Below are positions 7,051 through 42,321 of a DNA stretch of 64,000 nucleotides, piece after piece; the stretch's first letter is position 1, and each line of letters opens with the position of its first letter. Both the position numbers and the translations under genes were made by a program. This stretch comes from Klebsiella pneumoniae (GTDB lineage Bacteria; Pseudomonadota; Gammaproteobacteria; Eutrophobiales; Eutrophobiaceae). The notes beneath the pieces are model-generated. The model worked only from the letters and a program-made list of their open reading frames with translations. It was not told where the DNA came from and did no database searches. The stretch is taken from the NCBI GenBank assembly GCA_945878555.1, contig CAMDWI010000007.1, positions 67,698-131,697 of the forward strand, given 5' to 3'.

Positions 7051-10000
7051 CTATTTAAAGAAATACTGGAATCGCACACCATAGCCCCGGAAGCTGGCCT
7101 TGCTGATGCCCCTGTCATCAGTAAAGACTATACCTGCACGGGTCAAGTCGTATTCCTGGTTGTAAACGATACGGTCTTCCATCAGGTTTCGGACATAGGC
7201 TGCAAACTGCCAGGTACCCTCCTGAGGCCCAAATCCTGCCATCAGGTTGGCATCCCAATGGCCGGCATTATACATGCGCGACCTGTCCATGACGTCCGCC
7301 AGTACTGTCTTTTCGTCCTCGATATAACCCTGTGCGTTCAGCATCAACTCATAATCATCCATGATTGGCATGGTATAGGTGGCGCCTAGCACAATCTTGT
7401 AGTCCGGTGCGAAGGCCGGCTCCAGACCAGCGCGGTTGAATGTGAACTCTTCACCAATGGATGAATCACCAGCAGCAAACTCGGCTGTGTCTGCAAGACG
7501 GCAACCACCATTCGCCAGCAATTCCTCGGGTATTTCCGAGGCAGATGGCAAGGTATCCGCCAGCTCAGCCATATTGTCCAGTACGTCATTGGCATTAGCA
7601 AGTTCAGCCGCTGTCCGTCCCGCCGGGTTCTCCAGCGCAACGATTGAAGCCGCAACAATCTCGGAGTTGGTACACCCTGTACCATCAAACTCACCATACC
7701 TGGCATTCATGAGCGAACCTGCGAAATTGAACACCAGCCTGTCTGTTACAGCCATGTCAAAGTTCAGTTCCATACCATCCACCTTGACACTGCCTGCATT
7801 CAGGCTGAGTCCTTGCTGATCAATGACATCATTCGGGTCAAAATCAGACACGGCGGCCTCGGCCTGCAGGTCAGTAAACCGGGTCATATGACCTGTAATA
7901 CTGTAACGTGCGCGTCCATCCACCAGACTACCTCTGGCCCCAAGTTCATAAGACTTGGAATACTCCGGGGTAAAGTAGATTTCATCAATGCTGGTCGGGA
8001 GTGTCGATGTGCCGGTATCCGTTACAGGCCCCTTGAAACCTTCGGCATATTTACCATAGAAGGTATGATTGCTGTCAAATCTGCCACCTTTAGGTGTAAA
8101 GCTGAGAACAACCTGGGATGCATAATCGGTCGCGCCCTGGTCGATATCATCAACACATGTATCACAACTCCCAAACGGACCACCGGCGTTTGTATAGACC
8201 GGCGCTGTCAGACCAACAGCCGAGGCCCCGGCCCCTCTCCAGTTGAGCGGTACCGGAGTTCGCACGTTCCACTGCAGATGGGTCCACAGATTATTCGTGT
8301 TGGCGCCCTCGATGAATATCCTCGGACTATCAACTCGAATCTGACGCTGTAACCGTTGCGTAGCGCTACCTGTGGTGGCACCCTTACCAGTCACCGGATC
8401 AACAATGGTGAACGCGGTCAGATTCGTATGTACCCGCTTGAAGTCCGGGTCAATTGTACAGGTTGCCGGGTCTGAGTCAGTCCCGTTCGAATCACAGGGT
8501 ATCTGATCAAATATCAATGCAGCGCCATAACCTTGCAGGAAGACATCCTTGTGGACATCGGAGTAACGCCCACCAAACTGCAAAGAAACCTGTTCATCCA
8601 TAAATTTCAGGTCCATACCCCAGAAAGCGGACTTGAAATCAGCGTCTTCCCAGATAAAGTTCATACGCTGACCCCGACGCAGGATTGCCCTGATATTGCT
8701 GACCATGACGTCCTTGTCCCATTGCTGGTAGTAGGCGCCTGCCATGAAATTCATGTTTATGCCGCCGACATTATAACCATCAGCCGGACCTTCCAGTCGG
8801 AGCTGCTGACTATGCTGGTCCATATTGGTTCGGCGGAACTGGTTGCTATCGGCAAAGATACCATCACCACTGTCGGCATTGGCATCTCGTTGAAACTTCA
8901 CGAAGGCCGATTGCGAATTTATGGTCCAGCCATTGGCAAACTCATATGTTGCATCAATGAGGGTATGATAGGAATCCACGTCATCGTGGCCGTTATAGCC
9001 CTTGCCGTCGAGACCGTCTATACCCATTACGCCAATCTCTTCCACGTTATCAACGGAATGAAACGCATTCATTACCGCCCCGGCATCCACATATCCATCA
9101 AATACTGAACTGAGGCCACTCTTGGCGATATTGGTTATAATCGGTTTGGTCCAGGGGCCGTTACGGCTGATCCCGTATTCATCCTCAAAGCAGTCCTTGC
9201 CCGTGTATTTCGGGTCAAATTGAACGATTCCGAGCTGACCGCTATTCGAGAGTCCGCCCGCGCTGGCAGGTACGTAGACAGCAGTCTGCTGGCCCGCATC
9301 CGGTGACCCGGGCGTAACGCCGTTAATAGTCGCATCGGACCATCCACGCACACTGCCTTCTGCGATACAACCCGAGCCTAACTCGCCACCATTGCGCTGG
9401 CGGTTGATCTCGAACTTGGTCAGGATATTCCAGCTTTCATTTGGTTGCCACTCAAGCATGGCTCGACCACCGAGTGAATCAAACCGGGGAAACTTCGAAT
9501 CGGTCAGACGGTGTTTTAAAAGACCATCCAGCTTGTCATAACTGGCAGCTACACGGAATCCCAGGGTGTCCGTTATGGGGCCACTAAACATTCCGAACAA
9601 TTCACGTTTACCGTCGTTACCAAACTCACTGGCTACCTCACCCTCGAATTCTGCTGTGGGTCTTTTGCTGGCGATGTTAAATGCACCGGCACTGGCATCC
9701 ATACCAAAATGCAAAGGCTGCGGTCCCATCAGGACCTCGACACGATCAGTATCCATAAAAGCATTTTTGACCATTTCGAGTGAGCCGAAATGTATGCCAT
9801 CAACGAATATCGGGGTGGCAGACTGCAGTGTCATAGAATTGCCTGAAGTACCGAAACCACGAATGGTGGTATTTTGCCCGGAGGTTCCGTCCGACATATG
9901 GACAGATGCTGACATTCTTGCCAGATCGTCCAGATTTTTAAACCCCTGTAATTCGATCTGTTCCCCACTAAAAACAGCGACAGATACCGGCACTTCCTGC

Positions 10001-10140
10001 AAGGACTGTTCGCGGCGCTGAGCTGTAACTACAATCTCCTCCAGTTCCTGTGCATATATATTGATGGAGACGACAGTTGATGCAGCTAGCGTCGCAATTA
10101 CTATCGAATTAAGACTCGATTGTTTACTCTTTACAGCCAT
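7051..10140 (-). CDS. TonB-dependent outer-membrane receptor, unusually large at 1029 aa
   Basis: Signal peptide MAVKSKQSSLNSIVIATLAASTVVSINIYAQE. TonB-box/plug region (EEIVVTAQRREQSLQEVPVSV...VEVLMGPQ) and a long beta-barrel body ending in an aromatic-rich C-terminus. Confidence 0.8.
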   Translation of the reverse strand: MAVKSKQSSLNSIVIATLAASTVVSINIYAQELEEIVVTAQRREQSLQEVPVSVAVFSGEQIELQGFKNLDDLARMSASVHMSDGTSGQNTTIRGFGTSGNSMTLQSATPIFVDGIHFGSLEMVKNAFMDTDRVEVLMGPQPLHFGMDASAGAFNIASKRPTAEFEGEVASEFGNDGKRELFGMFSGPITDTLGFRVAASYDKLDGLLKHRLTDSKFPRFDSLGGRAMLEWQPNESWNILTKFEINRQRNGGELGSGCIAEGSVRGWSDATINGVTPGSPDAGQQTAVYVPASAGGLSNSGQLGIVQFDPKYTGKDCFEDEYGISRNGPWTKPIITNIAKSGLSSVFDGYVDAGAVMNAFHSVDNVEEIGVMGIDGLDGKGYNGHDDVDSYHTLIDATYEFANGWTINSQSAFVKFQRDANADSGDGIFADSNQFRRTNMDQHSQQLRLEGPADGYNVGGINMNFMAGAYYQQWDKDVMVSNIRAILRRGQRMNFIWEDADFKSAFWGMDLKFMDEQVSLQFGGRYSDVHKDVFLQGYGAALIFDQIPCDSNGTDSDPATCTIDPDFKRVHTNLTAFTIVDPVTGKGATTGSATQRLQRQIRVDSPRIFIEGANTNNLWTHLQWNVRTPVPLNWRGAGASAVGLTAPVYTNAGGPFGSCDTCVDDIDQGATDYASQVVLSFTPKGGRFDSNHTFYGKYAEGFKGPVTDTGTSTLPTSIDEIYFTPEYSKSYELGARGSLVDGRARYSITGHMTRFTDLQAEAAVSDFDPNDVIDQQGLSLNAGSVKVDGMELNFDMAVTDRLVFNFAGSLMNARYGEFDGTGCTNSEIVAASIVALENPAGRTAAELANANDVLDNMAELADTLPSASEIPEELLANGGCRLADTAEFAAGDSSIGEEFTFNRAGLEPAFAPDYKIVLGATYTMPIMDDYELMLNAQGYIEDEKTVLADVMDRSRMYNAGHWDANLMAGFGPQEGTWQFAAYVRNLMEDRIVYNQEYDLTRAGIVFTDDRGISKASFRGYGVRFQYFFK

Positions 10141-10293
10141 GGGACCCCCCCCTGTAAGCTCTATGAGATTACTTGTTAGTGAATTTTTATTGTTTGTTTA
10201 TTTATAGTCGCCTTAAACTTATTAACAATCTTGTTGTTATTATTGATTACTAGCCGTAATGCGGCTACTCACTCATTTTTATTTTTGCGCAGG

Positions 10294-12204
10294 TTAGCTG
10301 TTTAAAGCACTGGCTTTTACTCGAACAGCAGCATCGGTTTTCCAGTTTTTCTTTCTTTCTTCCAGCTTCAGTACAATGTCCTTGATCGCGTTTGTCACGA
10401 TTTCGTTCTGTGTCTGATCCGCTTCCAGGCCCCCGCGCCCACCTATGCACTTACCTACCGGAGCTGGTGGTGGCGCAGTACCCGCGCCTAATTCAAGCAG
10501 CAATTCAGCTGTATCAACACGTGGGAGAGTTCTGTCCAGCATGCCATCCGTCTTGTCAGCCAGTGCCATGCTAATTGGAGTTCTTCCGCAGCCGTTGACA
10601 GCATCAATTGCAGCACCCTTCTCTACCAGAAATCTGACCAGCTTGTCTGATCCCAGAAATGCAGCCGCATGTAATGCTGTCCAGCCAGTCTCGGTGGCTG
10701 CGTTGACATCTGCACCCAACTTAATCAGACCTTCTGCAATCTTCAGGGCCCTGTCCTCCTCATCATTCGTCATATCTGCCCTGCGTCCCAGACCGACGGC
10801 AGCCATCAGCGATGTGGCAGTACCAACTATCAGGTTATCTTCTGCAGCGTGACTAATCTGTGCCTTGTAGAGCTGCTCGGTAATCTCGGTTCTGACCAGA
10901 GGATCAGCCCCCCGCTCAAGCAGCATTGCGACGGCATCTGCATCCTGCGAGGCTGTTGCAAGAAAAAACGGCGTGGCATTTCTTAAGGTAAACCACGGAT
11001 TTCTTTGTAATCTCAAAATTTCTGGCGGGTACTTCATTGGTGCGTTCACATCTGCGCCCTTTTCCAGCAAGGCAGCTACCAGCTTGTGCATATTGGGTCC
11101 TGGCAGGGGCTTTTTCGTGTCGTACTTCTTGGCTTCGACCGGATACACTTCAACATTCGGCTGTGTCAAATAAGCTCGCACCTGTTCATTCAGTGTCTCA
11201 TCGGGCCTGCATAGAAATCCCTCACCCCCGAAATTACACCACATCTTCTTGTCAGTAATAATCAGACCGTGCAGTACCTTGATACCATCCCTCAAGGCAT
11301 AATGCAGCGGGGTAATACCATTACCGTCCGTCACATTGGGATTCGCACCATTATCAAGAAAATACAAGGCCAGGTCTTCATGCCCCTGAAAGGTCGCCAT
11401 TAACAGCGGGCTACCATCCGATTCAGAAACAGAGTTTACATCAGCGCCTTTTTCAACCAACAATTTAGCCGTGGCAACATCACCTGCGCGAGCTGCAAAT
11501 ATCAGCGGTGTGTAGCCACCCATCGGTACAGCCTTGATGGTTGAGCCTTCATAACCTTCCACTTCCAGAGGCGTGAAATCTTCCTTCAGCATTATCGTTC
11601 TGGCATTCACGTTGGCACCGTTTTCTACCAGTAACTGTGTAATATCTGGATGTTTGAATGAAATCGCCCACATCAGTGCTGTCTGCCCGCGCCTGGGTTC
11701 ACTTACATTAACATCGGCACCGTGTTCCACAAATAACCTGGCTGCTTCAAACAAACCGGTACGAGCGGCTGTCATTAACAAGGTCTCACCGGCCCAGGTT
11801 GCAATATTGGGGTCAGCGCCTGCCTTCAGTAAGGCTTTCACCATCTCTATGCTGCGGTTTTCCGTTGCCAGCATCAGGGGTGTAACCCCGTAGTCATTTG
11901 CTTTATCGGGATCAGCGCCTGCATCCAGCAAACGCTGTACCGTATCCAGCTTGTCCCAATAAACCGCGTAGGCCAAGGCTGTGGCCCCGTCCATCTGCGC
12001 CGCATTAACATCCACCTTCTTGCTATTCATCAGGGAATCAACACCCACCCAATCCTGATTTTTGGCCGCATCCACCAGCGGTAACTCAGTTTGGGCTTGA
12101 GTAGACATACTTAACAGCACAAATACACCCAACACGGCCAGCCTGCCAAAGATTGTTTTCCCTGAACCAACTACATTCATGCTGATTCTACTCATTGTTT
12201 CCAC
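10294..12204 (-). CDS. secreted ankyrin-repeat protein (more than 10 ANK repeats)
   Basis: 636 aa with an N-terminal signal peptide (LAVLGVFVLLSMSTQAQT). It has many tandem approx. 33-aa repeats matching the ANK consensus (G.TPLM.AA..G......LL..GAD.N). Examples: DGATALAYAVYWDKLDTVQRLLDAGADPD, GVTPLMLATENRSIEMVKALLKAGADPN and GWTALHAAAFLGSDKLVRFLVEKGAAID. Confidence 0.8.
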   Translation of the reverse strand: METMSRISMNVVGSGKTIFGRLAVLGVFVLLSMSTQAQTELPLVDAAKNQDWVGVDSLMNSKKVDVNAAQMDGATALAYAVYWDKLDTVQRLLDAGADPDKANDYGVTPLMLATENRSIEMVKALLKAGADPNIATWAGETLLMTAARTGLFEAARLFVEHGADVNVSEPRRGQTALMWAISFKHPDITQLLVENGANVNARTIMLKEDFTPLEVEGYEGSTIKAVPMGGYTPLIFAARAGDVATAKLLVEKGADVNSVSESDGSPLLMATFQGHEDLALYFLDNGANPNVTDGNGITPLHYALRDGIKVLHGLIITDKKMWCNFGGEGFLCRPDETLNEQVRAYLTQPNVEVYPVEAKKYDTKKPLPGPNMHKLVAALLEKGADVNAPMKYPPEILRLQRNPWFTLRNATPFFLATASQDADAVAMLLERGADPLVRTEITEQLYKAQISHAAEDNLIVGTATSLMAAVGLGRRADMTNDEEDRALKIAEGLIKLGADVNAATETGWTALHAAAFLGSDKLVRFLVEKGAAIDAVNGCGRTPISMALADKTDGMLDRTLPRVDTAELLLELGAGTAPPPAPVGKCIGGRGGLEADQTQNEIVTNAIKDIVLKLEERKKNWKTDAAVRVKASALNS

Positions 12205-12228
12205 CCCATCCCCAAAACCATGTAGATC

Positions 12229-13578
12229 TTATGCTTCGCGGCTCAAATCCAGTTCACCGGTTGACATTCCCAACTCACCACCGAAGCTCTCGGTGGGAAT
12301 ACCGGCCTTGTTCAACATGGCAACATGAAGATTGGCAGTGGGTGTACCTTCCTTATACATGACATGACGGCCACCCTTGATCGCGCCCTGACCACTACCA
12401 ATCAATGCCATCGGTATATTCCATTGGCTGTGGATATCTGCATTACCCATACCGGAGCCATACACCAGCATGGAGTTATATAACAGGGAAGTGCCATCAA
12501 TTTCCTTGCTTGCTTCCATTTTTGCCAGGAATTCGCCCAGTAATTTGGCTGTGTAGACGTTAATATCGCCTGCCATTCTCTTCTTGACTGGATTACCACG
12601 ATGGTGCGTCAGCGGATGGTATGGGTCAGTGTGTCCAAGGGCGGTAAATACAATCTCGCTGTATTCGCGCGCGACCATAAATGTGAACACCCTGGTCATG
12701 TCAGTCTGATAGGCCATCAATATCAGGTCATACATCAGTCGTACATGTTCTTCGTATTCAGGGATACCAACTGGCCGCTTGACGTCAGGGAGTTCCCTGT
12801 CGACTGTTGTCTCTGCCTTCTGGATACGCGACTCAACATCACGCAGTGCGGTTGTAAACTCTTCGAGCTTGGCCTTGTCGTTGGCACCAAGTTTATTTTT
12901 TGTCCGATTAAAGTCTTCCTTCACGAAATCCAGAATACTCTTTTGCTCCTGCAATCGTACCCGTCTGGCCTCAGGATCAGTTCCGGCATCTCCGAACAGT
13001 CTTTCGAATACATCACGCGGACTATGTACCATGGGCAAGGGTGTGGTCGGACCGCTCCAGGAGATCGTGTTCGTGTACGCGGAACTATAACCGCCAGCTG
13101 ACTGCCCCGACAACTCAGCAGCATTTTCAATACATAGCTGGAGAGAATCCAGTGGGGTTCCTTTGCCCAGATGCTTGGCCAACACCTGGTCTACAGAGAT
13201 TCCAGCCCGGATTTCACTCAGTGACTCATTCGGTTTGGCACCGGTCAGGAACATGGCACTGCCACCGACGTGTCCACTGACACTTTCCGCATCACCATTA
13301 TTCAGGTTACTGATTACCAGTAATTGATCACGTACATGCTGCCACTGTCCCAGGATGTCCGTTACTTCGTAGTTCTTGCCGGCCGTGGCGGGGCGAAAGC
13401 GTTCCTGGATAATGCCGTTTGGGCTATACACATAACCCACCCGTAACGGGATACTTTTCAGCACATCAGTCGTTGCTCCCAGAGCAGGCATCATGGCATC
13501 CAAAGCCGGTAGCGCAACCGCCGCACTCAGGCCACGCAAAAATGTACGACGTGGTAGAGACTTTTTGAAAATAATCAT
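12229..13578 (-). CDS. DUF1552 (HXXSHH) family protein with a twin-arginine signal
   Basis: 449 aa with a Tat motif PRRTFLRGLSAAVALPALDA and an HPLTHHRGN motif (HxxSHH-like). It overlaps the upstream DUF1592 gene by 4 nt (ATGA), indicating translational coupling. Family recall is from the planctomycete-type DUF1552/DUF1592 pairs. Confidence 0.7.
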   Translation of the reverse strand: MIIFKKSLPRRTFLRGLSAAVALPALDAMMPALGATTDVLKSIPLRVGYVYSPNGIIQERFRPATAGKNYEVTDILGQWQHVRDQLLVISNLNNGDAESVSGHVGGSAMFLTGAKPNESLSEIRAGISVDQVLAKHLGKGTPLDSLQLCIENAAELSGQSAGGYSSAYTNTISWSGPTTPLPMVHSPRDVFERLFGDAGTDPEARRVRLQEQKSILDFVKEDFNRTKNKLGANDKAKLEEFTTALRDVESRIQKAETTVDRELPDVKRPVGIPEYEEHVRLMYDLILMAYQTDMTRVFTFMVAREYSEIVFTALGHTDPYHPLTHHRGNPVKKRMAGDINVYTAKLLGEFLAKMEASKEIDGTSLLYNSMLVYGSGMGNADIHSQWNIPMALIGSGQGAIKGGRHVMYKEGTPTANLHVAMLNKAGIPTESFGGELGMSTGELDLSREA

Positions 13579-16031
13579 GATCCTGCCCTCCTCATTTGAA
13601 ATGGTATACTGTTTACTACACCTAAAACGATTGATGAAAACCTGAAATCTTCAGGTGTGGCATGGCGCACAACCTCACGTACTGCCGGCATATCATAATG
13701 TTCAAGCGTGCGGCCCAAGGCGTACGTTAATAACTTCTGCGTGAATGCACTGACGAATATCTCAGGTTCACTTAACAGGGCCTCCTGTAATTGTGCCGGT
13801 CCCTCAAAGGAGATCCCATTCGGGAGTCTGCCTGCTGCATTGATCGGTTTACCTTCATCCTCGGTACGCCACTGGCCGATTGCATTGTAGTTCTCGAGAC
13901 CGAATCCTATCGGATCCATCTGGTTATGACATACAGCACACACCGGGTTGGCCGGATGAATTTCCATCCGTTGACGCAAGGTCAACACCTCTCCTGGAGC
14001 ACCCTTTACATCTTCCAGCGGCGGAATGTTTACAGGCGGTGGAGGAGGTGGCGAGGCCAGAATATTTTCCAGAACCCATTTACCACGCAACACAGTTGAA
14101 TTTCTGTTCGGGTAAGAGGTGATTGAAAGTATACCCGCACGGGCCAGCAGTCCTTGCTGGTCCTTCGCAAGAGTGACTTTTCTGAAACGATTACCGTAGA
14201 CATCATTAATCCCGTAATGTCGCGCAAGTCGTTCGTTCAGGAACGAGTAATCTGCCCGGAAGAGGTCAAGAATGGAACGATCATCATGAAAGATGCTGCC
14301 AACGAACAAGGATACTTCCTTATAGAACGAGGTACGCAACTCTTCATCAAAGTCGGGGAACGCATCCTCACTCTTCTGCGCCTGTGGCAGGTTACGTAAC
14401 AACAACCACTGTTCCGCAAAGTTATTTACCAGTGATTCAGAGCGCTTGTCCTTGAGCATACGTCGCACTTGCTGCTCAAGCACGGCGGGGTCGCGCAATT
14501 TGCCCTGCTCCGCTATGGTCAACAATTCATTATCGGGAATACTACTCCAAAGCAGAAACGACAACCGCGAAGCCAGGGAGAGGTCATCCAGCGCATAGTT
14601 TTCGCCTGGTTTTACACCTTCAGGATCAGTCTCTATCCGGAACAGAAACTCAGAACTCATCAACAAACCTTCGAGCGACTTGCTGATTCCAGAATCGAAT
14701 GAGCCCTTCTTGCGGCCTTCCTCAAAAAGTCCAAGTAACGGTTCCAAATCTTCATCGTTCACCGGACGTCGATATGCCAGACGCGCCTGCTTCGACAAAA
14801 TCTGTCGTGCACAGGCCAGCTCCTCTTTCTTACTTGCCGGCTTGCAAACAAATATCCTTTCGCGGCTGAGGGTTTCACCAACACCACGTGGATTATATGG
14901 ACCTGCGATGGAGACCGTACTCACTGCAGGTTCGGCCCAGGCACGTCCATAGACATCCTTCACTGATCCCTTGTCGTAACTTTCATAATTGGGCTCAGGA
15001 TAAACCACCCCTTCCCACGCAAAGTTTTCCTTCATAAATGCGACTTGTACGGTATGCGTTCCCGCCGTCATAGGGAACCGAACCAGCAAGGCATCGTCCG
15101 CCCTGCGTTCATACATGGATTGTTCTCGATCTGGTGGCAAGGTATCCGACGCCTCACGACCCAAGCCGATACCTACATTTTCACCACCTACGATCATTAG
15201 TTTGACCCGCTTGCCATCAACCCTCACATCAAGACGACTGGGTTTGGCAAGACCGACTATTAATCCGCCGCCAAAGTTTTGCAGATTAATCTTTATCTCA
15301 TATTCGCCATCAACCGGGAACCTGTGACGGACAGCTATACCACCACGGGAGCCAAAAGGCAGATTTTCATCAGTGCGATCATCCTGCAAAAACTTCGGAT
15401 CGACATTATAGAGTTGAATATCAACATTTGTATCAGGGTCACCCACCGCAAGTTTGGTTACTTGCCTGGCAGCTGTCATATATCTTTCCAGCAGGATCTG
15501 CGATACCGATAGCAGATCACCCAGATTATCAAAGCCACCCGAATTATCCGCCGGCAGCGTAGACGCGCCGTCAATCTCCACTGCCAGCAGATCGCGGACT
15601 GCATTCGTATATTCAGTGCGGTTCAGACGGTGTGCCGTTACACTCCTGCCCGGATTCGGGGCAGCCTCGGCCATCTTGTCGAGATTGCCTTTCAGGTAGG
15701 ATGTGAAAGAACTGTAGAATGCCTCTTCAGGCCGGGGCATACCTACTGGTGGCATTGAACGAAGGGAAAGCTTGGTAATGACCTTTTCCCAGACTTGCGG
15801 TTCCTTGCTTAGATCAGTCAAATCGGCCTTGTCCAGCTTCAGAAATGCCGTATTTAGCGTTTCATTATGGCAAGTGACGCAATATTGATTCAACGTCGAA
15901 CGGTATTTGTCTACAGAGTACTCAGAGTTGGTACCGGGGACGCCTTGAGCCTGAGCGTAAGCGGCACTACCCAGACACAAGATAGCGCCAAGTATCGATA
16001 CCGTTCTATTTCCTGCATTCACTGGATACAT
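13575..16031 (-). CDS. DUF1592/DUF1595/DUF1587/DUF1588-type multidomain protein with an N-terminal c-type haem motif
   Basis: 818 aa with a signal peptide (ILGAILCLGSAAYAQAQG) and a CxxCH motif (CVTCHN) near the N-terminus. The architecture and size match the planctomycete-type cytochrome-domain proteins that pair with DUF1552. Confidence 0.7.
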   Translation of the reverse strand: MYPVNAGNRTVSILGAILCLGSAAYAQAQGVPGTNSEYSVDKYRSTLNQYCVTCHNETLNTAFLKLDKADLTDLSKEPQVWEKVITKLSLRSMPPVGMPRPEEAFYSSFTSYLKGNLDKMAEAAPNPGRSVTAHRLNRTEYTNAVRDLLAVEIDGASTLPADNSGGFDNLGDLLSVSQILLERYMTAARQVTKLAVGDPDTNVDIQLYNVDPKFLQDDRTDENLPFGSRGGIAVRHRFPVDGEYEIKINLQNFGGGLIVGLAKPSRLDVRVDGKRVKLMIVGGENVGIGLGREASDTLPPDREQSMYERRADDALLVRFPMTAGTHTVQVAFMKENFAWEGVVYPEPNYESYDKGSVKDVYGRAWAEPAVSTVSIAGPYNPRGVGETLSRERIFVCKPASKKEELACARQILSKQARLAYRRPVNDEDLEPLLGLFEEGRKKGSFDSGISKSLEGLLMSSEFLFRIETDPEGVKPGENYALDDLSLASRLSFLLWSSIPDNELLTIAEQGKLRDPAVLEQQVRRMLKDKRSESLVNNFAEQWLLLRNLPQAQKSEDAFPDFDEELRTSFYKEVSLFVGSIFHDDRSILDLFRADYSFLNERLARHYGINDVYGNRFRKVTLAKDQQGLLARAGILSITSYPNRNSTVLRGKWVLENILASPPPPPPVNIPPLEDVKGAPGEVLTLRQRMEIHPANPVCAVCHNQMDPIGFGLENYNAIGQWRTEDEGKPINAAGRLPNGISFEGPAQLQEALLSEPEIFVSAFTQKLLTYALGRTLEHYDMPAVREVVRHATPEDFRFSSIVLGVVNSIPFQMRRAGS

Positions 16032-16314
16032 TTCCCCCCCTAGAAGAATTCACCTGCTTGTAACATCTACAGCTACTGCTACATCACTCCCCCTGAACAA
16101 AAATCGAAACTGCCATATAGATTACTGATCAAAATGACTTGCTGAATTGAAAGCCAAATTAGCTAATACGCGTAAATCAGCCTTCGCCAATTATCACTCT
16201 AGCTGAGTCTACATATCCAGTCAAATTTATCAACACATCATAAATCGAATTTACGTTATTCGAATCAACAAGTTATAAATTCAACTCACAACCGTTCTGG
16301 ATAATCCGTAAACA

Positions 16315-16963: not shown

Positions 16964-19246
16964 TCAGTACTCAATCTCCAGCCCCGCATACCAGCTCCGC
17001 GGCATACCCGGCCTTGGCCCGTGAGGCTGACGTGACACCATGTACGCCTCATTAAACAGATTATGCACCCCCGCAAACATCTTCATATGCCCCAGAGGTT
17101 TAAAATACAGTGACAAATCGGCAATGCTGTATGAATCAGTGGTGCCGAACCTGGCATCCGGCACACCCGCACCATTCACCTCTGCCTCCACATTGCTCGC
17201 ACTGGTAAATGTTTCATCGACAAAACTGGCACTGACTGCCCCGCCCCAGTTGGCGAAATCCAGGTTCGTACCGAGACTTAACTGGTATTGCGGTATATAG
17301 GGTACCTTGTTACCTTTCAGACCGAAGCTGAAGATAGATTCCGGGTCAGTTGAGCTGGCATCGTTCTGCTGCTCGGCGTTTGTATAGGTAAATGCGAAAA
17401 AATAACGGTTACTAAACTCCCAGTCACTGGCCAGACCGAGATCGTATGTTCCTGTCAGTTCGATACCGCTGGAGTCCACTTCCCCGAAGTTTTCATCCGC
17501 GCCGCTACCGGCGCCACCGATACTGCTTATCACGATCAGGTCTTCAAAACGGGTATAAAACGCGACCGCCTCGGCCATCAAGGTATTACTGCTATTGGCA
17601 TAGCGCATACCCAGTTCATAACCGGTACTGGTCTCCTCCTCCAACCCTGCCACCGCACCACCCGGGCTAGGCGGAGAGAACCCCATATGCACACCGGCTA
17701 ACGCTTCCAGCTCGGGGCTGAACTCATAAACAATACCAACACCACCGGACATCATGTCCAGATCTGCATTTGCTGTTGTGCCACCAACGCGATTATCACG
17801 GCTCTCAAGGTCGAGCGTCTCATACCGGAAACCGGGCTTGATGATCCAGTCCCCCGTACGCATAGTGTCCTGTACATACACCGCCCACGCACCGGTCTCA
17901 GCCTCACGGTTATCCTGTGTGCCGGGGATGCCGCGTGTGATACCGCTGATAGAACCGTTTACTGACTGGGCGTACACATCGTCCCACTGAAACCGGTCTT
18001 CCACGTCATTGTGATAACGTATACCGACGCCGACTTCATGAGCGAGGCCTTCTGAGTCAATACGCCATTCCAGATCGCTCTGCAAACCCCAGGCATAATA
18101 TTCGCGATTGTTGGCACGGACTCGCAAGCCACAAGCCAGCTCGCCGCGCAGACAGGCCAGACCTGTGCCGGACTGTGCACCTGCCAGTGCGGCCGACATC
18201 TCCAGATTGGCAGCAAGGCCACCGGTGGCTGTTCGCAGGTCATTCAACTTGTACCAGTTACGTGCAAACTCGTTGTAATACGCCGTTGTTATTACATCAA
18301 TTTCTTCAGTCGGTGAAATAAAGTAACGCAGATGAGTACGTGACTGTTCGGTATCGATCGTGTCGTATTGTGACGCGGCATAACGACGATAAGGACTCGC
18401 ACGAAAATCTTCTGTACTCAAACCGAGGTAAGTCTCGTCTGCCTGCTTTTCTGTATAACCGTATTTGAACTCGATCCGCTGGTAAGTATTACTGTGTGGC
18501 TCAAATGCCAGTTTTACCATAGGCTCAATATTATAAAATCCGGTCTCACCATTGATCTCGCGGGCGGCGAGACTGTCGACACGCTTGAATCCGTCAGTAT
18601 CACGTCCATATGTTTCGACCACAAAACCCAGTCTGCCCGCACCGGTATTCAGTGTTTTACCGTAGATACCGTGGATGCGCATATCATTGTCTTCACCGTA
18701 TTGCGCACGCAGAAAAACACGTTGTTGCTCCGGTATCGGGGTGGAGATGTAATTCACGATACCGCCGGTAATATGCGGACCGTACTTGACCTGACTGGAT
18801 CCTTTCAGAAGTTCCAGGCCGTCCATGCGACCTGTTGTGGGTGAATAATAGGCAGCAGGGGCGGCATACGGTGCCGGCGCAGCGAGGATGCCATCTTCCA
18901 TCAAAGTAACCTTGGCACTGCGGGTCGTATCAACCCCGCGCAGGCTCAGGTTCGGAAACAGTCCATAACCGTCCTCCTCGCGGATATATACACCGGGTAC
19001 CTTCTGCAGCACACGATTGATATCGTCATAGGACATATTGCTGATGTCAGCATGATCGACGTAATGGGCCGAGCCGGGGATGTCATATATATCACCCCGA
19101 GAACCAATCACGTAAATCTGGGTGAGAACATCTGCATCGGGCGCGGATGTCTGCTGCTGTGCGCTGGCAGTACTGGATAATCCGGAAACGGCTATAAGCA
19201 GCCCTGATATCAAGCTGCCGGAAACTGCATGTGGCTTCAAATACAT
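16964..19246 (-). CDS. TonB-dependent receptor (probably for siderophore or iron uptake)
   Basis: Signal peptide MYLKPHAVSGSLISGLLIAVSGLSSTASA. Plug region (VLTQIYVIGSRGD...VPGVYIRE) and a beta-barrel ending LEIEY. Start set at the second Met, which has an AAGGG ribosome-binding site. A Fur-box-like site lies upstream. Confidence 0.8.
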   Translation of the reverse strand: MYLKPHAVSGSLISGLLIAVSGLSSTASAQQQTSAPDADVLTQIYVIGSRGDIYDIPGSAHYVDHADISNMSYDDINRVLQKVPGVYIREEDGYGLFPNLSLRGVDTTRSAKVTLMEDGILAAPAPYAAPAAYYSPTTGRMDGLELLKGSSQVKYGPHITGGIVNYISTPIPEQQRVFLRAQYGEDNDMRIHGIYGKTLNTGAGRLGFVVETYGRDTDGFKRVDSLAAREINGETGFYNIEPMVKLAFEPHSNTYQRIEFKYGYTEKQADETYLGLSTEDFRASPYRRYAASQYDTIDTEQSRTHLRYFISPTEEIDVITTAYYNEFARNWYKLNDLRTATGGLAANLEMSAALAGAQSGTGLACLRGELACGLRVRANNREYYAWGLQSDLEWRIDSEGLAHEVGVGIRYHNDVEDRFQWDDVYAQSVNGSISGITRGIPGTQDNREAETGAWAVYVQDTMRTGDWIIKPGFRYETLDLESRDNRVGGTTANADLDMMSGGVGIVYEFSPELEALAGVHMGFSPPSPGGAVAGLEEETSTGYELGMRYANSSNTLMAEAVAFYTRFEDLIVISSIGGAGSGADENFGEVDSSGIELTGTYDLGLASDWEFSNRYFFAFTYTNAEQQNDASSTDPESIFSFGLKGNKVPYIPQYQLSLGTNLDFANWGGAVSASFVDETFTSASNVEAEVNGAGVPDARFGTTDSYSIADLSLYFKPLGHMKMFAGVHNLFNEAYMVSRQPHGPRPGMPRSWYAGLEIEY

Positions 19247-19290
19247 CGTCTGACCCTTATTATTATATTGCATATTCTTAACCTAAACGA

Positions 19291-19309
19291 TAAACATTAT
19301 CATTCAATA
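19291..19309. promoter_or_regulatory. Fur-box-like operator upstream of the TonB-dependent receptor gene
   Basis: ATAAACATTATCATTCAAT. Its reverse complement contains AATGATAATG, which matches the Fur consensus core AATGATAATC. It lies about 45 nt upstream of the receptor start, between bfd and the receptor gene. Confidence 0.4.
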
Positions 19310-19720: not shown

Positions 19721-20185
19721 TTACATCTTCGATTGCAGGTAGTTTTCGAGGCCAATCTTTTCAATCAGACCAAGCTGCGTCTCCAGCCAGTCGATATGTT
19801 CTTCCTCGCTCTCAAGGATATCTTCAAACAGCTCTCGGGAAATGAAGTCCTTCACCGTTTCACAATGGGTGATCGCTTCACGTAAATCCGGCACGGCCAT
19901 CAATTCCAGTTTGAGGTCGCACTCGATGATTTCCTTTGTGTTCTCTCCGATCATCAGTTTACCCATGTCCTGCAGGTTCGGCAGACCGTCAAGAAACAGG
20001 ACACGTTCAATCAGCTTGTCTGCGTGTTTCATCTCATCTATCGATTCTGCATATTCGTGATCGGCCAGCTGTTTCAGGCCCCAGTTCCGGTACATGCGTG
20101 AATGGAGGAAGTACTGGTTGATGGCACTCAGTTCATTTTTCAGCACCTTGTTCAGATAGCTGATTACCTTGGCGTCGCCCTTCAT
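19721..20185 (-). CDS. bfr: bacterioferritin
   Basis: 154 aa. [36 protein letters not shown] plus ferroxidase-centre residues (E..H, E..E..H). Full-length match to Bfr. Confidence 0.9.
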
Positions 20186-23607: not shown

Positions 23608-25497
23608 ATGAAGCTCGGCCGACTGACAGTGCTGCTGGTGCTGGTGCTATTCTGTAGTACCGGGGCTGCCCAGAGTCTGAGTGAGCGTTTGCAAAATCTG
23701 CGCGGCATGGCCAGCACGCCGGAACAGGACTTCCTGCACCCGGACCAGGCCTTTGTCATGTCGGCGTCAGTCGACGGACCCAACCTTATCAACGTGCAAT
23801 GGCAGATCGCCGAAGGTTATTACCTGTATCACGACAAGTTTACCTTCGAGATTACCGAGGGTGCGGCCAGAGTCGAGGCGAGTTCAATTGTTGTCCCTCC
23901 TGGCAAGACCAAGGAAGACCCATCCTTCGGTAGCGTGGAGATCAACACAGGCGATATCGCGATAGATGTGCCGCTGATCCGCACCCGGGACACCGAATCC
24001 CCGGTTACCTTGCAGATCGGCTATCAGGGCTGCAAGGACAATTCCCTCTGTTATCCGCCTATCAAGAAATCCGTGCCACTGATCCTGTCCGCTGTGACTG
24101 CTGAAAACAGTAATGTCGCGAGTGCCAGCAATGTCAGCGCCCGGCCCGAATCTGGAGCCGGTGCCGCCAGCGGGCCGATTGAAATATCCGAACAGGATGA
24201 GTTCACACAGAAACTGAAAGAAGGCAGTTTGCTGCTGAATATATTGCTGTTCTTCGGAGCCGGACTGCTGCTCGCGGTCACGCCCTGTGTATTTCCGATG
24301 ATCCCTATCCTGTCCGGCATCATCGTCGGTCAGGAAAAGACAGTCACTCATGCCCGGGGCTTTGTCCTGTCACTGGTATATGTTGTTGCGATGGCCCTGA
24401 CCTATGCGGTCATAGGCGTGGTAGCAGCAATGGCAGAGATGAATATCCAGGCAGCGGCACAGAACGTCTGGGTTATCTCCATCTTTTGTCTGGTATTTGT
24501 CGCGCTGGCATTATCGATGTTCGGGTTTTACGAGATCCAGATGCCTTCTGCACTGCAGGATCGGCTGGTTCGCATCAGTAACAGTCAACAGGGCGGCACC
24601 TTGTCCGGTGTGGCAATTATGGGCGCTGTTTCCGCCATCATTGTGGGACCCTGCGTTGCACCACCATTGATCGGGGCACTGGCCTATATCAGCCAGACCG
24701 GTGACAAACTGCTGGGCGGGATGGCACTGTTTGCGATGGGTATGGGTATGGGTGTACCGCTGCTGGCGATCGGTGCCTCGGCCGGTTCGCTGCTGCCGAA
24801 GGCAGGTGGCTGGATGGACACGGTAAAGCAGGTGTTTGGTGTGGGTCTGCTGGCAATCGCAATCTGGTTCCTTGCACGCGTTGTCTCCCCGACCGTAGAG
24901 CTGTATCTGTGGGCAGCGCTGCTGATGATCAGCGCCATTTATATGGGTGCGCTCGACCAACTCGATAAAAATGCAGGCTGGGCGCGGTTATGGAAGGGTA
25001 TTGGCCTGCTCATGCTGGCTTACGGCTTGTTGCTAATGGTCGGTGCGTCTTCGGGTAGCGAGAACTTCTTTAAACCGCTGGAAAGTTTTGCCAGTGCGTC
25101 GGGTAACGCAACGAAGTCCGAAGACAAGCTGGTTTTTAAACGGATAAAAAGTGTGGCCGACCTGGACCGTGAACTGGATCTGGCGGCTCAAAATGGACAG
25201 TCAACCATGCTGGATTTCTACGCGGACTGGTGCATTGAATGTATCCGCATGGAATCAAATACATTCACCCAGGAGAATGTGCATCAGGCACTCGACAAGG
25301 TGGTGCTATTACAGGCAGATGTCACGGCCAATGATGACACCGATAAGGAATTACTGCGCCGTTTTGGCATTTACGGGCCACCCGCAATCCTGTTTTTTGA
25401 TCACAACGGGGACGAGCGGACGGCGTATCGTATGTTCGGTTATGCGAATGCGGAAAAATTTGCAGCGCATGTGAACAAGGCCGTTAGCCGCATATGA
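23608..25497 (+). CDS. dsbD: thiol:disulfide interchange protein DsbD
   Basis: 629 aa with a signal peptide, a periplasmic alpha domain, a multi-TM beta domain (CVFPMIPIL...CVAPPL) and a C-terminal thioredoxin gamma domain with CxxC (CIEC). Confidence 0.85.
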   Translation: MKLGRLTVLLVLVLFCSTGAAQSLSERLQNLRGMASTPEQDFLHPDQAFVMSASVDGPNLINVQWQIAEGYYLYHDKFTFEITEGAARVEASSIVVPPGKTKEDPSFGSVEINTGDIAIDVPLIRTRDTESPVTLQIGYQGCKDNSLCYPPIKKSVPLILSAVTAENSNVASASNVSARPESGAGAASGPIEISEQDEFTQKLKEGSLLLNILLFFGAGLLLAVTPCVFPMIPILSGIIVGQEKTVTHARGFVLSLVYVVAMALTYAVIGVVAAMAEMNIQAAAQNVWVISIFCLVFVALALSMFGFYEIQMPSALQDRLVRISNSQQGGTLSGVAIMGAVSAIIVGPCVAPPLIGALAYISQTGDKLLGGMALFAMGMGMGVPLLAIGASAGSLLPKAGGWMDTVKQVFGVGLLAIAIWFLARVVSPTVELYLWAALLMISAIYMGALDQLDKNAGWARLWKGIGLLMLAYGLLLMVGASSGSENFFKPLESFASASGNATKSEDKLVFKRIKSVADLDRELDLAAQNGQSTMLDFYADWCIECIRMESNTFTQENVHQALDKVVLLQADVTANDDTDKELLRRFGIYGPPAILFFDHNGDERTAYRMFGYANAEKFAAHVNKAVSRI

Positions 25498-42141: not shown

Positions 42142-42321
42142 GGGTATCAACCGTTCTGACGTTGAAAGCGCTGAACTTGAACCAATAGTTCAAGTGGGGA
42201 CAGCGTGTGACATATCAGGCTTCCCTTGCGGGCATGCACAACAACATCACGATTAGCCCCCGGGGTTATGTAATTAGGCTCAAGTTACCCTGCCTTGTTA
42301 CGCGCAGTCCAGAAGATACCC
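42142..42321 (-). ncRNA. ssrS: 6S RNA (SsrS)
   Basis: - Position: immediately downstream of zapA on the same strand, as in E. coli.
- Promoter: minus-strand TTTACT-17nt-AAATAT at 42329..42357, with the transcription start near 42321.
- Closing stem: 5' GGGUAUCUUCUGG pairs with 3' CAGAACGGUUGAUACCC.
- Conserved 3'-arm hairpin: CUUGAACUAUUGGUUCAAG (E. coli has CUUGAACCAAGGGUUCAAG).
- Length: about 180 nt.
- Terminator: an 11-bp hairpin plus GUUUUU at 42088..42130. Confidence 0.55.

Follow-up and report, generated by a model that had tools for sequence, protein, structure and literature searches.

A DUF1592-type, DUF1552 and ankyrin-repeat gene trio with a facultatively linked TonB-dependent receptor gene in a gammaproteobacterial lineage

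The four-gene cluster and the domains of its products

The window analysed here is a stretch of 64,000 nucleotides (nt) of contig CAMDWI010000007.1 (positions 67,698 to 131,697; assembly GCA_945878555.1, deposited as Klebsiella pneumoniae). It carries a cluster of four large co-directional open reading frames (ORFs) on the minus strand, which encode a DUF1592-type protein with two haem-attachment motifs, a DUF1552 protein, an ankyrin-repeat protein and a TonB-dependent receptor (Table 1). ORF calling agrees exactly with the gene positions proposed in a first-pass annotation made from the sequence. As also proposed there, the first two genes overlap by 4 nt; the overlap has the form ATGA and is preceded, 8 nt upstream, by an AGGAGG Shine-Dalgarno sequence. 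The gap between the DUF1552 and ankyrin genes is 24 nt, the value given previously, while the AT-rich gap between the ankyrin and receptor genes is 153 nt and not 150 nt. The true start of the ankyrin gene is probably an ATG at 12195 or 12180, which would bring its gap to the DUF1552 gene to 33-48 nt; in locus L033 the gene caller starts the ankyrin gene at a 628-aa form. Export signals were judged by eye from the translations and suggest, in line with the earlier claim, that all four products are exported. Proteins 1, 3 and 4 have hydrophobic N-termini with AQA-type sites at their end. The window holds a single copy of each gene; relatives may have two or more.

Table 1. Features of the cluster in window coordinates (aa, amino acids)
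Feature	Position	Strand	Evidence or context
DUF1592-type gene, 818 aa	13575-16031	-	Pfam, translation, AlphaFold2 model
First haem-attachment motif CVTCH, aa 51-55	15867-15881	-	N-terminal segment
Beta-sandwich, about aa 200-385	14877-15434	-	no Pfam coverage; resembles carbohydrate-binding modules
Second haem-attachment motif CAVCH, aa 698-702	13926-13940	-	in PSCyt3
DUF1552 gene, 449 aa	12229-13578	-	Pfam
Twin-arginine export motif RRTFLRG, aa 10-16	13531-13551	-
Family signature HPLTHH, aa 321-326	12601-12618	-	Thr variant of HxxSHH
Ankyrin-repeat gene, 636 aa	10294-12204	-	Pfam Ank, PDB ankyrin-1 match
Hairpin TAGCCG-CATTA-CGGCTA	10251-10267	-	directly after the ankyrin stop codon; AT-rich spacer next
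TonB-dependent receptor gene, 1029 aa	7051-10140	-	Pfam Plug
Overlapping sigma-70-like promoter matches	16190-16233	-	consensus scan, weak; upstream of the DUF1592-type gene
Untranslated leader, about 160 nt	16032-16195	-	promoter-like sites to the DUF1592-type gene

Five Pfam domains succeed one another along the DUF1592-type protein: PSD3 (E 6e-22, 78.4 bits), PSD5 (1e-17, 64.3 bits), PSD4, which is DUF1592 (3e-45, 154.1 bits), PSCyt3 (9e-33, 112.9 bits) and PSD2 (1e-21, 76.7 bits). Their gathering cutoffs are 23-34 bits. With the match of the second protein to DUF1552 (PF07586; E 9e-87, 292 bits for a cutoff of 30), all assignments lie above gathering scores and bear out the families named in the first-pass annotation. 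The CxxCH motif described there is also present; it is however not single, since a second one lies in PSCyt3. Both motifs are invariant among 65 homologues of 56-95% identity. Down to 29% identity, no homologue examined lacks the C-terminal motif, and only three lack the N-terminal one. Conservation in orthologues, on which the earlier interpretation had been made to depend, thus extends to both motifs. Met93-Pro94-Pro95 is likewise invariant in the 65 homologues, and the Met93 region is a possible source of an axial haem ligand. With its CVTCH motif and distal methionine the N-terminal segment looks cytochrome-c-like; its matches to Cytochrome_CBB3 (21.1 bits, cutoff 27) and PSCyt1 (17.8 bits, cutoff 22) are both below cutoff. 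The AlphaFold2 model of the protein is of moderate quality (pLDDT 73.5). Its helical C-terminal half has no recognisable solved relative in a Foldseek comparison with the PDB, the sequence gave no match when compared with solved structures, and NCBIfam has no model for either the DUF1592-type or the DUF1552 protein. Two further cysteines outside the haem motifs, Cys396 and Cys407 (window 13938-14847), are invariant in the 65 homologues and could be joined by a disulfide where the PSD5 region begins. At a distance of about 7.5 kb from the cluster is a DsbD gene (23608-25497, plus strand), and another is found directly upstream of a receptor that adjoins a trio in locus L122 (3061-5106). This proximity may be a coincidence or a tie to cytochrome c maturation.

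The N-terminus of the DUF1552 protein reads PRRTFLRG followed by the hydrophobic stretch LSAAVALPALDAMMPALGA, from which Tat export is predicted. The Pfam TAT_signal match is weak (E 0.046), and the pattern RR.[FLIVM][LIVMF] occurs in all full-length DUF1552 homologues except two with over-extended listed ORFs. The signature Hxx[ST]HH is kept down to 28% identity, its Thr variant being common to the close clade of the window and some distant members. In 19 diverse DUF1552 sequences, H103, H321, H325, H326 and H383 are invariant or nearly so. H321/H325/H326 are thus joined by N54/G55, which follow the first strand, by H103, where the helix behind the second strand begins, and by D381/H383, which come after a late strand. 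In the close clade of the window AES-VSGHVGG and GQSAGGYSSAY, which have no cysteines, replace the family's motifs GDG-x-GDHARA and CDSGYSCAY.

The structural model of the DUF1552 protein matches the alkaline-phosphatase-superfamily fold, with sulfatases, nucleotide pyrophosphatases/phosphodiesterases (NPPs), phosphonate monoester hydrolase and phosphoethanolamine transferases among the relatives suggested. On this model N54, H103, H321/H325/H326 and D381/H383 would occupy the topological positions of the metal ligands and nucleophile of the superfamily. If the mapping holds, the site appears to be rich in histidines, with a histidine in place of the Ser, Thr or formylglycine nucleophile. Sequence comparison with solved structures gave no match, either for the single sequence or for a profile of 19 sequences, and a Pfam search at E 10 returned no Sulfatase, Phosphodiest, Metalloenzyme or DUF1501 match. 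A conserved sulfatase signature C/S-x-P-x-R was not found in the protein: the pattern occurs only at aa 7, in the signal peptide, and at aa 42, where it is not conserved.

The third protein is clearly related to ankyrins (Pfam Ank, E 8e-65, 211 bits in 6 stretches; Ank_2, 205 bits; PDB ankyrin-1, 9e-84). It is predicted to be exported by its N-terminal signal and to contain about 10-11 repeats. The receptor matches Plug (PF07715; E 7e-15, 56 bits for a cutoff of 23.9), and the barrel model PF00593 gave no match at E 0.01. PF00593 is on record for the homologues P0394 (63% identical) and P0403 and for the barrel fragment of a split orthologue in L039; the protein belongs to a long subfamily in which Pfam often finds Plug alone. 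Its plug resembles those of siderophore and haem receptors, with a TIGR01783 match of 1e-27 that is under the cutoff of that model, and PDB matches cover the plug region only. A TonB-box-like EEIVVTA was recognised by eye. The sequence ends in ...FQYFFK, so that the aromatic residue is penultimate instead of C-terminal. The window receptor and its orthologues in L001-L003 and L039 all end in one or more aromatic residues plus one charged residue (YFFK, YHFE, YFFR, YNFR, YNYR; window 7051-7086).

Conservation of the trio and linkage of the receptor

Gene neighbourhoods were surveyed in 32 loci from species-representative genomes and 80 metagenome loci, in which ORFs were called mechanically and compared with the window proteins. 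The metagenome loci are the 80 that best matched the window protein in a scan with a narrow alignment and are therefore biased to its branch; the adjacency figures describe this branch and not the whole DUF1552 family. The DUF1592-type and DUF1552 genes overlap as ATGA in 44 of 73 pairs from many phyla, and most of the others show short overlaps or very small gaps. This recurrence argues for coupled, stoichiometric synthesis of two subunits, and the DUF1552 gene is predicted from it to be translationally coupled to its neighbour. It agrees with the earlier description of the pair as a conserved two-gene unit. In line with the functional characterisation said there to be lacking, a search of 8 million full texts on the DUF and Pfam names found no functional study.

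Ankyrin adjacency was counted over the 47 pairs whose flanks could be seen for 1.5 kb or more in both directions. An ankyrin gene adjoins 35 of them, directly downstream on the same strand in 24, directly upstream on the same strand in 6 and upstream in divergent orientation in 5; none was detected in the remaining 12. The association depends on DUF1552 identity. An adjacent ankyrin gene is found in 10/10 pairs at 60% identity or more, 18/19 at 43-60%, 6/8 at 41-43% and 1/10 below 41%, where Gemmataceae, Verrucomicrobia, Poribacteria and others are found. It is thus present in 34 of the 37 pairs at 41% or more, and a 35th is hidden by a frameshift: the single miss of the 43-60% band is an artefact of this kind, as the locus does carry the gene. 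Given how rare ankyrin genes are in bacteria, chance cannot explain such adjacency. The pair of DUF1592-type and DUF1552 proteins thus has a conserved third partner in the ankyrin protein. The partner proteins resemble one another in layout, with about 10-11 repeats in 450-636 aa, and a signal-like hydrophobic segment opens 59 of 63. Among the carriers are Gammaproteobacteria, Bryobacterales and a genome labelled Nevskia soli (L009).

Some loci contain duplicated trios, in tandem (L004:7557-18605), divergent (L006:1412-13220) or convergent (L051:2103-12857) arrangement, and a further case is found in L121:17156-23003. Counterparts in such paralogous trios share only 45-65% identity, which suggests that the duplications are old and that specificity has diverged. 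In the Candidatus Eutrophobius lineage the ankyrin gene itself is duplicated.

The receptor behaves differently. A homologue search gave orthologues of 59-91% identity and a wider subfamily of 40-45%. In L001, L002, L003 and L039/L040 an orthologue 60-91% identical comes straight after the ankyrin gene or genes, and orthologues next to a trio are confined to the close gammaproteobacterial clade. The window cluster is flanked by ferritin, 769-aa receptor and DAGK genes on one side and PRK and ABC transporter genes on the other. That of L039 is flanked by TIM and SecG on one side and by ABM, RidA and Fer2+MoCoBD on the other. Since all flanking genes differ, the four genes travel together. In Candidatus Eutrophobius brisbanensis (L034:15363-15872) a 169-aa receptor remnant, 63% identical over 79 aa, follows two ankyrin genes; this looks like a recent loss of the receptor with retention of the trio. 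The loci of the wider ankyrin-linked clade yielded no homologue of this receptor or of the 769-aa one. In a reciprocal test, eight members of the 40-45% subfamily were picked blind to their surroundings. Three of them, 42-43% identical to the window receptor, adjoin a trio in three gene orders: upstream and co-directional in L126, convergent in L122, and in L121 separated from the trio by an amidohydrolase and a pyrroloquinoline quinone (PQQ) dehydrogenase. In the soil loci L051, L068 and L113 another TonB-type barrel (CarboxypepD_reg + OMP_b-brl_4) is directly adjacent to the trio and co-directional, and the same barrel type lies within a few kb in six more soil loci.

The linkage of receptor and trio is therefore real in this gammaproteobacterial lineage but facultative, and the receptor is accessory rather than core. 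The first-pass annotation had grouped all four genes in one envelope module. The HMM assignments together with the conservation of motifs and neighbourhood support an envelope module, of which the trio, with its ankyrin link, is the conserved part; the receptor does not qualify as a core member. Of the two neighbours whose recurrence around DUF1592/DUF1552 pairs that annotation proposed to examine, the ankyrin gene recurs in this branch of the family and the receptor only facultatively.

In L001 the receptor (7802-10909) is only 75% identical to that of the window, whereas the flanking proteins are 94-99% identical. Recombination or diversifying selection on a surface protein could account for this divergence hotspot. 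Clustering of neighbours had initially given 15 loci with one barrel family, which proved to be joined only by the CarboxypepD_reg domain and splits into 9 TonB-type barrels and 7 Vgb_lyase/SGL-like propellers. Several other recurrent neighbour clusters were discarded as long antisense ORFs in GC-rich DNA (e.g. in L088, no Pfam match). Proteins combining CarboxypepD_reg with a Vgb_lyase/SGL-like propeller are directly adjacent to trios and co-directional in soil loci (L076:1266-2945, L087:7066-9036, L089:10170-11228, L104:1077-2861). A Vgb_lyase-like gene also occurs near a subfamily receptor in L128.

A candidate periplasmic complex and competing explanations

We tentatively favour, with confidence a little short of even, a periplasmic complex of the three trio proteins that processes an organic substrate and is fed here by the receptor. 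The DUF1592-type protein would be a Sec-exported c-type cytochrome with two haems, whose CBM-like (carbohydrate-binding module) sandwich binds the substrate. The DUF1552 protein would be a Tat-exported metalloprotein of alkaline-phosphatase fold with a His-rich metal site, and the likely catalytic subunit. The exported ankyrin protein would serve as scaffold or assembly factor. In this gammaproteobacterial lineage the long receptor would import an organic substrate too large or too scarce for porins, which the complex would bind and transform in the periplasm, and the haems would exchange electrons with the catalytic subunit or the respiratory chain. The complex itself, its haem and metal loading, the role of the ankyrin protein, the class of substrate and the redox coupling are what we infer from domains, motifs, models and neighbours. 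A c-type cytochrome must cross the membrane unfolded to receive its covalent haem, which fits the Sec-type signal of the first protein. The DUF1552 protein would cross folded and presumably metal-loaded, which fits its Tat signal. The genes that recur next to trios encode PQQ dehydrogenases, amidohydrolases, Fer2+MoCoBD hydroxylases and lactonase-like propellers. PQQ dehydrogenases and Fer2+MoCoBD hydroxylases are periplasmic and give electrons to c-type cytochromes, and these neighbours point to the oxidation or processing of organic compounds. Redox chemistry, towards which the first-pass annotation had pointed, would be part of this picture.

Several points weigh against such a complex. The proposal is weakest where it assigns a role in redox chemistry to a protein of alkaline-phosphatase fold. 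The superfamily carries out phosphoryl and sulfuryl transfer; we know of no redox enzyme in it, so that a haem partner would be without precedent. The DUF1552 model is moderate (pLDDT 66.7, 152 residues below 50) and its catalytic site was mapped only from the order of secondary structure elements. For the cytochrome, the CBM-like match does not rise above those of generic jelly rolls (TNF/C1q score about 8), and Foldseek with its model against the PDB gave no match at E <= 0.001. Moreover, most trios that lie outside the close clade lack the receptor. Five of the eight distant subfamily members have no trio nearby, their neighbours being cupins, alpha/beta hydrolases, Fer2+MoCoBD hydroxylases, PQQ dehydrogenases, an aromatic-ring hydroxylase and Vgb_lyase-like propellers. 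The AT-rich spacer with its hairpin could also give the receptor gene a promoter of its own.

These points on the receptor also speak for another explanation, in which the trio is the functional unit, the receptor a mere neighbour and the shared synteny a result of common descent. It is further favoured by the lack of a window-receptor homologue in the wider ankyrin-linked clade, by L034, which lost the receptor and kept the trio, and by the many such receptors that these bacteria hold. The looser proximity of barrels in about nine soil loci (within 7-10 kb), by our own rough estimate of their frequency, is not clearly above chance. However, trio and orthologous receptor occur together in the window and in L039 despite entirely different flanks, the blind sample yielded three further trio-receptor arrangements, and barrels of an unrelated type directly adjoin trios in three soil loci. 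We hold the mere-neighbour explanation to be unlikely, though it carries some weight. A doubtful alternative concerns the chemistry instead: the DUF1552 protein could be an ordinary phosphate, sulfate or phosphonate ester hydrolase or transferase, its cytochrome-like partner serving for substrate binding, structure or sensing. This agrees with the fold match, with the CBM-like sandwich of the partner and with the sulfatase genes often found near PSCyt genes in freshwater Verrucomicrobia (PMC5615132). It is at odds with the missing sulfatase signature and Pfam matches described above and with a nucleophile position that seems to be an invariant histidine, and the retention of two haem motifs across phyla argues for working haems.

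Two further explanations retain the haems and assign them other tasks. The module could take up iron or another metal, the receptor importing a ferric chelate or haem and the two-haem protein reducing or releasing it. The plug resembles those of siderophore and haem receptors, JGI names the receptor homologues generically 'outer membrane receptor protein involved in Fe transport', and further upstream the window carries a second receptor and a ferritin-like gene. These two neighbours are nevertheless shared only with the near-identical L001, and elsewhere the recurrent neighbours are catabolic enzymes, with no iron-uptake genes. Fur-box matches ahead of the receptor gene and of the first gene reach at most 11/19, which is background, as compared with 14/19 for the neighbouring 769-aa receptor, and no siderophore-type periplasmic binding protein or ABC importer was found in the cluster with Pfam. 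Metal uptake thus appears improbable. The last explanation, which we consider about as improbable, would have the ankyrin protein traffic haem or another cofactor and the pair act as a periplasmic peroxide or oxidative-stress enzyme. The trio does contain a haem protein, and AnkB of Pseudomonas aeruginosa, with KatB, is a similar case to that of Campylobacter. There, the ankyrin protein Cj1386, whose gene lies downstream of katA, is reported to take part in the trafficking of haem to catalase (Flint 2012, as cited in PMC4518328). In the window proteins, neither Pfam nor structure comparison revealed a catalase or peroxidase domain, and partner ankyrin proteins of 450-636 aa with at least 10 repeats would suit a scaffold better than a small carrier. 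Moreover, the attachment of c-type haems has machinery of its own, Ccm or System II, so that a carrier is not obviously needed.

The complex that we favour could be extended to a new type of periplasmic enzyme, in which an alkaline-phosphatase-fold metalloprotein with a dedicated two-haem partner and an ankyrin scaffold would catalyse a redox-coupled reaction on TonB-imported dissolved organic matter. In this full form the proposal is speculative and rather unlikely. If true, it would be the first redox-partnered member of the alkaline-phosphatase superfamily and would provide a functional handle on the DUF1552 and PSCyt/PSD families. DUF1552 is a large family, with relatives in about 13,900 clusters at 50% identity (E <= 0.001), and PSCyt/PSD domains are reported to be abundant in Planctomycetes and Verrucomicrobia. 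To these families the locus adds a third component, a fold for the likely catalytic subunit, a link to an importer and catabolic neighbours. Because its genes are single-copy and a relative exists in the genome labelled Nevskia soli, genetics and biochemistry should be easier than in Planctomycetes. Should the substrate prove to be dissolved organic matter of freshwater or soil, the system would bear on carbon turnover.

Relation to known systems and other features of the window

The pair belongs to a known, uncharacterised family, and the trio is widespread. DUF1592/DUF1552 pairs were noted by He et al. 2017 (PMC5615132), who found PSCyt/PSD families at high frequency in some Verrucomicrobia genomes. 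The pairs of Planctomycetes and Verrucomicrobia (PF07631/PF07627/PF07586) share with that of the window the domains, overlapping adjacency, Tat signal, HxxSHH and CxxCH. In contrast to the Planctomycete, Verrucomicrobia and Poribacteria pairs examined, which lack it, the proteobacterial-acidobacterial branch described here almost always has an exported ankyrin gene. The DUF1501 + PSCyt1/PSCyt2/PSD1 module of the PVC superphylum likewise combines a Tat protein with a multidomain cytochrome-c-motif protein, often with carbohydrate-binding domains, and electron transport has been proposed for it (Kamneva et al. 2012, PMC3542564). The Pfam families nevertheless differ on both sides, and neither an ankyrin partner nor a TonB-dependent receptor is reported for that module. 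Cbp2D of Cellvibrio japonicus (CBM2, X158, FN3, X183 cytochrome, DUF1587, X132 cytochrome) shares the combination of cytochrome c, DUF1587/PSD3 and CBM, and its X183 domain reduces a copper enzyme (PMC8981238); it serves as a precedent for the candidate complex. However, it is secreted, has no PSD4, PSD5, PSCyt3 or PSD2 and no DUF1552 or ankyrin partner, and its proposed partner is a copper monooxygenase.

From the alkaline-phosphatase superfamily, the DUF1552 protein differs in having no sequence-level match, no sulfatase signature, an apparent histidine nucleophile and an obligate cytochrome partner. The ankyrin proteins Cj1386 of Campylobacter and AnkB of Pseudomonas aeruginosa are reported to be tied genetically to a haem enzyme that depends on them to be fully active. 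Here there is no catalase, and the partner proteins are much longer and form a distinct family, so that the resemblance is an analogy only. As in SusC/D-type loci, a TonB-dependent importer lies beside periplasmic processing proteins; unlike those loci, the cluster has no SusD-like lipoprotein, glycoside hydrolase or regulator by Pfam, and the receptor is not of SusC type, with no SusC/RagA match in NCBIfam. In the literature searched, the exported ankyrin partner, the receptor link and the DUF1552 fold are not described.

The promoter-like matches upstream of the cluster score 9/12 each, the number of such sites in the region does not exceed that of shuffled sequence, and the stretch is kept only in the closest relative, L001. 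The last 40 nt or so of the leader (GTTACAAGCAGGTGAATT...GGGGGG) are kept in L001 and L002. Upstream alignments for the first gene and for the receptor gene revealed no common operator beyond the closest relatives, and Rfam found no riboswitch near the cluster and no family matching the leader of the DUF1592-type gene. The hairpin that follows the ankyrin gene is kept in L001 and L002. As it lacks a T-tract it was not called a terminator; it could be an RNA-processing or stabilising element between trio and receptor gene.

Outside the cluster, the second receptor (769 aa; 16964-19273, minus strand) is siderophore- or haem-like by NCBIfam matches that are below cutoffs. The Fur-box-like match that precedes its start by about 10 nt (19283-19301) is the best of the window, and the ferritin-like gene lies at 19721-20185. 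These two genes are probably an iron-regulated pair unrelated to the cluster. The window belongs to an ENA metagenome contig (ERZ27280278, k141_630459), and its closest matches in the genome collection are uncultured Gammaproteobacteria. The record of L001 (CAMBTO010000044.1), in which the locus is 99% identical, bears the title 'MAG: Klebsiella pneumoniae'; this label looks wrong because every other close match is an uncultured environmental gammaproteobacterium. Rfam also identifies a 6S RNA gene at 42144-42318 (minus strand) and an SAH riboswitch at 60636-60709 (plus strand), about 20 nt upstream of the ORF at 60728-62143.

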